DNA of 64,000 nucleotides. Origin: Eledone cirrhosa. Lineage: Eukaryota. The position numbers were made by a program, and so were the translations under genes. The stretch spans positions 40,486,001-40,550,000 of the forward strand of contig OZ024751.1 of the NCBI GenBank assembly GCA_964016885.1. Direction: 5' to 3'. The stretch's first letter is position 1. The number at the start of each line of letters is the position of its first letter. Below are positions 42,101 to 45,100 of the stretch, piece after piece. Below the pieces are notes generated by a model. The model was not told the origin of the DNA. It did no database searches and saw only the letters and a program-made list of their open reading frames with translations.

Positions 42101-45100
42101 TATATATATGTAATATATTTTATAATATATATATATGTAATATATTTTATAATATATATATATGTAATATATTATATATATATTATAAAATATATTACAT
42201 ATATATATATTATAAATGTAATATATTTTATAATATATATATATAATATATTTTATAATATATATATATATGTAATATATATATATATATATGTAATATA
42301 TATATATATGTAATATATATATATATATATGTAATATATATATATATGTAATATATATATATATATATATGTAATATATATATATATATATATGTAATAT
42401 ATATATATATATATATATGTATGTAATATATATGTAATATATATATTATATATATGTAATATATATGTAATATATATATTATATATATGTAATATATATA
42501 ATATATATATGTAATATATATAATATATATATGTAATATATATATATTATATATGTAATATATATATATATTATATGTAATATATATATATATATATATT
42601 ATATGTAATATATATATATATTATATATGTAATATATATATATTATATATGTAATATATATATATATATATATATGTAATATATATATATATATATATGT
42701 AATATATATATATATATATATATGTAATATATATATATATATATGTAATATATATATATATTATATATGTAATATATATATATATGTAATATATATGTAA
42801 TATATATATTATATATGTAATATATATATATGTAATATATGTAATATATATATATATTATATATGTAATATATATATATATTATATATGTAATATATATA
42901 TATATATGTAATATATATATATATTATATATGTAATATATATATATATATGTAATATATATATATATTATATATGTAATATATATATATATATGTAATAT
43001 ATATATATATTATATATGTAATATATATATATATATGTAATATATATATATTATATATGTAATATATATATATATATATATATATATATTATATATATAT
43101 ATATATATATATATATATATGTAATATATATATATATATATATATATATATATATATATATATTATATATGTTATATATATATATATATATATTATATAT
43201 GTAATATATATATAAATTCAAATTTAAAAGATATATATGTAGATAGAGAACCATATATATCGTTTGAGAAATGTACATAAAGATGGAAAAAGCCTTTTTT
43301 TTTTTTTTCCCTCCTTTCAGCACTGTTTCCTGAATAGTAGTTGCTTTAAATATGTGTACAAAATGGTGGATTGGCAGTATCGGTAGAGGTTCGGACGCCA
43401 TGCTTTGACGCATAGAGTTACGGCCCTTGCCATTCTGAGTTCAAATCCCGCCGAGGTTAACTTTGCCTTTCATCCTTACGGGGTCGATAAAATAAAGTAC
43501 CAGTAATGTACTGGGTAATTTTCTGGCCTTGTGCCAATAGTAGAAACAATTATTTGTTTCTCAAATGATATATGGTTTTCTCACTCTCTCTACACACACG
43601 TATATCATTCATTTAAATTTGAATTATTGATGCTCTGAACCAAGGTCTGTTGAGCTTATTTATTGAGAAACATGATCATCATACATATTAAATATGTATT
43701 GAATCCTTAATATATATATATATATATATATGTATATGTTGATTTTTCTGACTTGTTTTTTTTTTCCTTTTTTTTTTTTTTTTTTTTTTTTTTTTGAATT
43801 CACCGACAAGTTATTGCAGGCTTTTTTTAGCACTTTTTTTTAGTTTTAGCTTTTTTTTTTTTTTGTTGGCTTGTTGGCAGCTTATTTATGAAAATCGTAT
43901 TTGTAGCCATAAAAAATTTGAAAAAAGAATATAAGATAAATTCAATGTATGCATAATTACTGTTCATAAGCCTTACTGTGAAAATCTAAACAAATGTAAT
44001 AAACATTTTGTTATTCTCTTCATACACAGAAAAATCTTATATTTTTCTGTGTACGGAGATAAGAATTCATTTTCACATTTAATATGCACTCTATAAACTG
44101 TAGTGAAGGCAACCCATCTAGAAGAGCAGTAACTGAATAAAAGCTGATACAGTATATAGAAGACAATTTAAGTATTGACAGAGGACTTCTTTAGTGATGG
44201 TGGCATGAGGAAATCTCCCCCCCAGTCCATGGACAATGGTTGGTGACAGAAAAAATAGCCATATCAAAAGTATGAAATATACAACCTATTTGATGAATCA
44301 GGACTGTGTCCAAGAAAGACGTAGGCAGAAGAGTTGAAAGTTGATCTCAAGAAACTCCTCATAAAAGAGGAACAAAAGGAGAGAGGTGTTGTACTTGAAA
44401 GGATTCATTCAACCAATCAAAGCATGGAAAAGCTGATATAAAAATGGTGGTTTGTTTCCATGGCGATGCTTATAAATTAGTAATGCCTACATTAAATTTA
44501 TCTTAGATTTTCTAATATATGCTTTGTTGTGCATAAATATTTTTAGATGAAAAGAAAAACTATTATCTAAAATCATATTTCAGAAAATATTGGCTGTAAA
44601 TGTTCTAATGTGCTTCAGTAAATGTTATTTCTAACATCAAAATATTTGTTTAGCAAACATATCTCAATATTATATATCTATAATCTTGATGCCTGAAAAA
44701 AAAAAAAAGGGGGAAAATATGAATATTTACAAATTGTTTATAATGTTTAGACAAGAAAGGCCTTACTTTTCTCCTTCAGCCGAGAAATCAGCACCTTCAA
44801 GAGTAGGTAAGAGTGCCTTGTCACAGCTGACACAAGACTCACACTTCGGCCCATTCTGTCCATTCCGACGCTTTTTCTGTCTGTTTTAAGTCAGAAATAG
44901 TTGGAATATAATCACCTCTCCTCTACCTCCTCCTCTTACTACTACTACTACCTATTCAATCTCTTTCCATTCACTTATGTTTTTGCAATTGTGTTTTTGT
45001 ATTTTATATTTTTTTTTTTTTTAATTAAAACAGATTTATTTATATATTTATTTGCACAAAAACTCTTTAATGAAGCAACTCTTTTTATTGTGATTCTTCA

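Follow-up and report, generated by a model that had tools for sequence, protein, structure and literature searches.

A 27-nt exon in the gene for filamin, an actin cross-linker, of the octopod Eledone cirrhosa is confirmed as real. We consider it probable that this is a frame-keeping cassette microexon, with homologues included or skipped in the octopods and their sister clade, which would add a predicted nine-residue loop to the D-E turn of repeat Ig22 and likely acts as a tissue or stage switch that adjusts the mechanical behaviour of the C-terminal rod or its binding to partners, the repeat itself staying folded. The window, by which we mean the whole stretch of 64,000 nt analyzed here, carries most of a filamin gene on its plus strand. 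The exon lies in an 8.2-kb intron (41068–49280) which splits the third-last Ig repeat of the protein (Table 1).

Table 1. Features of the microexon and its surroundings in the window
Feature	Coordinates	Strand	Remarks
Upstream filamin exon	40950..41067	+	Ig22 strands B-D; phase 1 end (GAC G/GT)
Upstream in-frame ATG	44743..44745	+	MFRQERPYF...; others at 44689 and 44719
Polypyrimidine tract and acceptor AG	44760..44779	+	branch-like CTTAC at 44762; nearest upstream AG 44758
27-nt cassette microexon	44780..44806	+	adds AEKSAPSRV; AG/GT intact; homologous inserts in cephalopods
Donor GTAAGAGT	44807..44814	+	preceded by exon end TAG (TAG/GTAAGAGT)
Predicted stem-loop	44811..44840	+	GAGT/ACTC and TGTCA/TGACA over donor +5 to +8
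GC-rich downstream intron	44813..44872	+	four YCAY words
Downstream exon	49281..49451	+	Ig22 strands E-G, start of Ig23; joined to 50495 in run X4

Splice signals and reading frame

An earlier note on this DNA had described a 27-nt exon with an acceptor AG, a GTAAGA donor and phase 1-1, and all of these are present as described. The acceptor reads ...CCTTACTTTTCTCCTTCAG, its last base being 44779. Scripted splicing and translation of the joins 41067 to 44780 and 44806 to 49281 gave no stop and phase 1-1, the frame being kept, while the skipping join 41067 to 49281 reads NEIDD-GEYAVSF. Animal microexons are by definition of size 3–27 nt long; the length of this exon falls within that range, its AG/GT borders are canonical and its phase is symmetric.

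Under a strict filter (AG..GT, in frame, stop-free, 3–51 nt, pyrimidine fraction at least 0.7, donor match at least 5/7) 44780–44806 was the only candidate in the intron 41068–49280. The same intron offers 17 placements of the form AG-27 nt-GT; that at 44780–44806 matches a homologous insert at six of nine residues and the other 16 at no more than three.

Homologous inserts in cephalopod filamins

The earlier note had proposed a search for the peptide AEKSAPSRV in cephalopod filamin isoforms, and similar peptides were recovered. Twenty-four cephalopod filamin records were listed, 14 of which cover the insertion site; a nine-residue insert occurs exactly at this junction in five of them and is skipped in nine, including O. 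vulgaris [CAI9733697.1] and Argonauta [GAB1605000.1]. The insert is AQKTLPSRV in P0359 and P0362, which cluster with these two sequences, and AEKTMPSNI, AEKTLPSNI and AEKTLPSSI in P0356, P0357 and P0358.

A tree was built from 12 concatenated exon translations (21 rows of 738 columns). In it the filamin of the window groups with Argonauta and the Octopus cluster (support 100/99, identity 94–95%). The sister of this octopod group is a clade of records at 91% identity, and the two together form a single branch separate from gastropods and bivalves (support 100/100). We take the sister clade to be a further group of cephalopods, likely squid or cuttlefish. The insert was found in both clades. On these protein comparisons the exon is a cassette microexon conserved across two cephalopod clades and both included and skipped in the relatives.

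Two pairs of records illustrate inclusion and skipping. P0356 and P0272 agree at 2393 of 2394 residues outside the insert, a single residue differing, and P0359 and P0273 agree at 2414 of 2414, differing by the nine-residue insert and by a second insert of seven residues. P0356, P0357 and P0358 are likely to represent spliced RNA and not predicted genes, because their contigs of 8380, 3213 and 7740 nt, coding for 2403, 736 and 2397 aa, are too short to hold the introns of this gene. P0359 and P0362 are NCBI gene models, the latter with further odd segments.

The six sequences from the two clades follow the pattern A-[EQ]-K-[ST]-[ALM]-P-S-[RNS]-[VI], in which the length and residues A1, K3, P6 and S7 do not vary, S or T stands at position 4 and V or I at position 9. 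The two serines pointed out earlier in the insert thus fared differently, that at position 7 being invariant and that at position 4 giving way to threonine among the homologues. The window peptide is identical to the homologous inserts at 5–6 of nine positions, as against 30–34 of 38 and 50–53 of 56 in the flanks; the inserts drift faster than the flanking exons.

A large exon at about 7216–7794 (189 aa) is skipped in P0282, P0367, P0370 and P0371. The four full-length records which are without this optional exon all skip the microexon and four of the seven with it include the microexon, a weak hint of co-occurrence given the small numbers and non-independent records. Parallels to the 189-aa exon are found in an optional 567-nt exon of fly cher and in locust isoforms differing by 189 aa; because these match in size, the exon may be an old alternative exon of protostomes.

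Distribution outside cephalopods

We fetched 478 proteins, of which 411 cover the site, with no more than 15 members per cluster among the matches listed; bivalves, gastropods, arthropods and fish are well represented by isoform sets, but coverage is incomplete and includes no Nautilus record. No indel at the site was seen in 377 of the 411. Among these listed records covering the site the nine-residue insert is confined to the five from cephalopods described above and was seen in no non-cephalopod, and no multi-residue insert at this loop was found in any arthropod or vertebrate. An unrelated six-residue insert is present at the same junction in isoforms X1–X3 of the nemertean Tubulanus polymorphus (P0474–P0476 vs P0286) and absent from X4. 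At this junction also, amphioxus shows an additional Ala in 19 records (e.g. P0303 vs P0306) and fish lack one residue in three; both may represent tandem acceptors.

A scan of metagenome contigs with the degenerate pattern gave two matches, which had neither an acceptor AG nor a filamin context and were treated as chance.

RNA of Eledone cirrhosa

Four runs of one study cover the downstream region, none of them recorded as RNA, and two of these, X4 and X1, were compared over the downstream exons. Run X4 shows the joint 49451 to 50495 (GT..AG, depth 3870) and X1 does not; X4 is therefore spliced RNA. A single X4 contig aligns from 49280 and continues 97 letters further upstream. Genomic positions 49277–49280 are GTAG, the microexon likewise ends in GTAG, and the upstream exon ends in GACG. 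The alignment start at 49280 fits skipping, because with inclusion it would reach 49279 or before. The contig thus fits the skip form by a one-letter argument in one sample. Inclusion in E. cirrhosa is inferred from the intact signals and from the relatives.

Flanking intron and donor hairpin

The surroundings of the exon are GC-richer than the intron, as had been noticed before: GC content is 47% over 44760–44890 vs 26% for the intron, and 3.2% of 130-nt intron windows, those over the site itself included, reach 47%. The hairpin proposed earlier over donor positions +5 to +8 does fold as the predicted minimum-energy structure (44811–44840, −9.1 kcal/mol), with an outer-helix pair probability of 0.52–0.87 depending on the window, but it is not beyond chance. 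Compared with dinucleotide shuffles its energy gave z from −0.36 to −1.25, with 67 and 18 of 200 shuffles folding as well, and two wider windows gave z of −0.45 and +0.39; local base composition can therefore explain the fold. Six other donor regions of the gene were no better than −1.5 kcal/mol, most such intronic DNA being AT-rich and three of the six control windows being offset by 1–2 nt from the true donor.

The YCAY cluster at 44813–44872 is not beyond shuffles (mean 3.06, P = 0.34; 11 of 405 intron windows have at least four), and neither Rbfox nor QKI words turned up in the flanks scanned around the microexon.

In the wider intron a 1.2-kb TA-rich array extends over 41976–43218. A neighbouring intron holds a 24-nt tandem array (39357–39992; 26.5 copies, 94% matches). 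An ORF on the reverse strand (61322–61984) presumably resembles the reverse-transcriptase/endonuclease region of a Penelope-type element.

Identity of the repeat and predicted structure

The best PDB matches of the split repeat are 2d7p of filamin C and 2eeb of filamin B, which we take to be the 22nd repeats of these proteins. From an anchor motif to the C-terminus there are 251 aa in the window filamin vs 256 in filamin A, and a model of the C-terminal part matches FLNA Ig19-21 structures. The designation Ig22 is correct in human numbering, because of the match to 2d7p and 2eeb and a C-terminal distance equal to that of the edited repeat of filamin A. The insert accordingly lies, as the earlier note had it, in the repeat which vertebrates edit: according to PMC9546289, Ig22 of mammalian FLNA is recoded by Q/R A-to-I editing, this single-residue edit gives a higher unfolding force and stiffer actin gels, and Ig20-21 form the force-sensing pair of filamin. 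The counterpart of the FLNA Q/R site is a Gln encoded by CAA at 40206–40208, 15 nt short of the end of its exon (40223). PMC11221683 follows fly numbering.

An AlphaFold model was made of P0357 from a 52-row alignment (mean pLDDT 78, pTM 0.28, the packing of domains being unreliable). Strands 464–467 and 481–486 are kept on both sides of the insert (471–479), and pLDDT is below 50 at 470–478. The model thus bears out the claim that the nine residues enter the D-E hairpin of Ig22, placing them as a loop of low confidence between the D and E strands. The insert is predicted to be a flexible surface-loop extension of the D-E turn which leaves the domain intact. By general Ig topology this turn presumably faces Ig21, at the N-terminal end of the repeat.

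Other alternative exons of the gene

A second microexon (29862–29882; 21 nt, ENYLAIR, Ig20) is present or absent among cephalopod isoforms. Elsewhere its junction holds optional inserts in bivalves (10–23 aa) and amphioxus (15 and 37 aa) and the 82-aa insertion of filamin C. The latter may descend from an old alternative exon, since several of the inserts at this junction start with a similar aromatic-hydrophobic stretch. An open frame from an ATG to a GTAAG donor (31690–31826) matches alternative segments of P0362 and P0354 which join GTSPFDM, and is likely the internal first exon of a short C-terminal isoform. A hinge-region exon of 16 aa (19890–19937) is optional in relatives.

Alternative readings

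The upstream in-frame ATG (MFRQERPYF...) noted earlier is there, at 44743, together with two more; the suggestion drawn from it, that this might be a further alternative first exon, finds no support. On that reading 44780–44806 would be the 3′ end of a first exon starting at an upstream ATG and encoding a short C-terminal product. The open frame does contain three in-frame ATGs, and an internal first exon is apparently used at another place in the gene (31690–31826), as one might expect on this reading, but none of the five homologous inserts is N-terminal, all being internal with 470–2164 residues upstream, the acceptor is strong, and the product, as judged from the model, would be without strands A-D of Ig22. 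We regard it as extremely unlikely. That the exon is dead or cryptic in E. cirrhosa though its relatives use it is very unlikely: the AG, the GT, the tract, the frame and the invariant residues are all intact, and the indication of only the skip form in run X4 comes from one sample and from assembled contigs, which drop minor forms. The exon might, on the other hand, be real and nearly neutral, a loop insertion tolerated at an old intron where only the frame is kept, with no effect on filamin. The faster drift of the insert relative to the flanking exons would agree with this, as would a junction which tolerates unrelated changes (six residues more in Tubulanus, one Ala more in amphioxus, one residue less in some fish). 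Set against it are the constant length and the four invariant and two conservative (S/T, V/I) positions of nine, a conservation spanning two clades with filamins approximately 86% identical, and we think this reading unlikely.

A further question is whether the exon belongs to the canonical neural microexons, which the eMIC isoform of Srrm234 activates in flies and vertebrates. A frame-keeping exon of 27 nt, in a surface loop, skipped in nine of 14 records and with a TCTC word in its tract, resembles the eMIC/SRRM3/4 neural microexons in length, default skipping and the UCUC word. Fly eMIC exons are described in PMC8797185 as having very weak 3′ sites, UGC, CUAAY and long stretches without AG. 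The exon of E. cirrhosa differs: TGC is absent from the 30 nt next to the acceptor (one occurs in 100 nt), the AG-free zone is short (44758 carries an AG 20 nt upstream of the acceptor AG), CTAAY is missing from 100 nt, the tract is clean and the acceptor looks strong. UGC is not strictly required, the figures in 10.1101/2024.09.17.613571 being 79% and 74% for two groups of human SRRM3/4 microexons; the 15-nt microexon of fly cher, for its part, sits in the non-neural, non-eMIC “ASE” group (PMC8797185 supplement). Two features of the subclass were tested, UGC near the acceptor and a long AG exclusion zone with CUAAY, and because both are absent we do not place the exon in the eMIC neural subclass, a membership which we hold to be rather doubtful.

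Comparison with known systems

In size, symmetry, cassette use, within-clade conservation and predicted surface-loop position the exon is like other animal microexons; it differs in that this insert is found only in cephalopods among the records listed. Human filamins also have optional exons, among them the 24-nt exon 30 of FLNA and the hinge exons of FLNB and FLNC. Table S2 of PMC8797185 gives fly cher a 15-nt microexon (DmeEX0007447) and a 567-nt exon (DmeEX0007449), both in the “other alternative” group. All are small optional inserts in the Ig rod like the present one, but at a different site as far as the 411 records show. FLNA Q/R editing likewise acts on RNA and is limited to Ig22, but the edit replaces a single residue close to where the repeat begins (PMC9546289) and the microexon adds nine in the D-E turn. 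The unrelated optional insert of Tubulanus at the same junction recalls the Type I convergent exons at equivalent introns of 10.64898/2026.09.05.749416; that class consists of tissue-specific exons, whereas the present one is known from include and skip records, and the main text of that study is without filamin.

The class is an ordinary one, small optional filamin exons being known, and the isoform is already in public gene models. Octopus splicing overall is reported in PMC9699675 not to depart from that of other invertebrates, and “filamin” was not matched in the searched part of its supplements. Within the openly searchable literature no description of this exon was found, and three of the insert peptides gave no match. 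The supplements of a 2026 bioRxiv study with octopus tissue splicing may list this exon.

Proposed mechanism and significance

Returning to the regulated cassette microexon, we would suggest that skipping is the default for so short an exon and that certain tissues or stages include it, presumably through an activating RNA-binding protein on the GC-rich downstream intron; the hairpin at the donor may weaken the 5′ splice site. The regulator would probably be other than the classical UGC-dependent neural eMIC/SRRM pathway. Inclusion would add a loop of Lys, Ser, Thr and Pro residues and so might change partner binding or the mechanics of the C-terminal rod. A functional effect of the insert is plausible, because one edit in mammalian Ig22 raises the unfolding force and stiffens gels (PMC9546289). 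A bolder proposal is that Ig22 has repeatedly been tuned at the RNA level, by Q/R editing in vertebrates and by splicing at one ancient D-E-turn intron in cephalopods (nine residues), Tubulanus (six) and amphioxus (one), so that a hairpin-gated cephalopod exon would switch the unfolding force of Ig22 and the stiffness of the actin network from tissue to tissue, as the splicing analogue of the vertebrate edit; this we think quite unlikely as it stands. The microexon itself would provide cephalopods with a clade-conserved isoform switch in a mechanosensing cytoskeletal protein, in a repeat whose mechanics mammals alter by editing.
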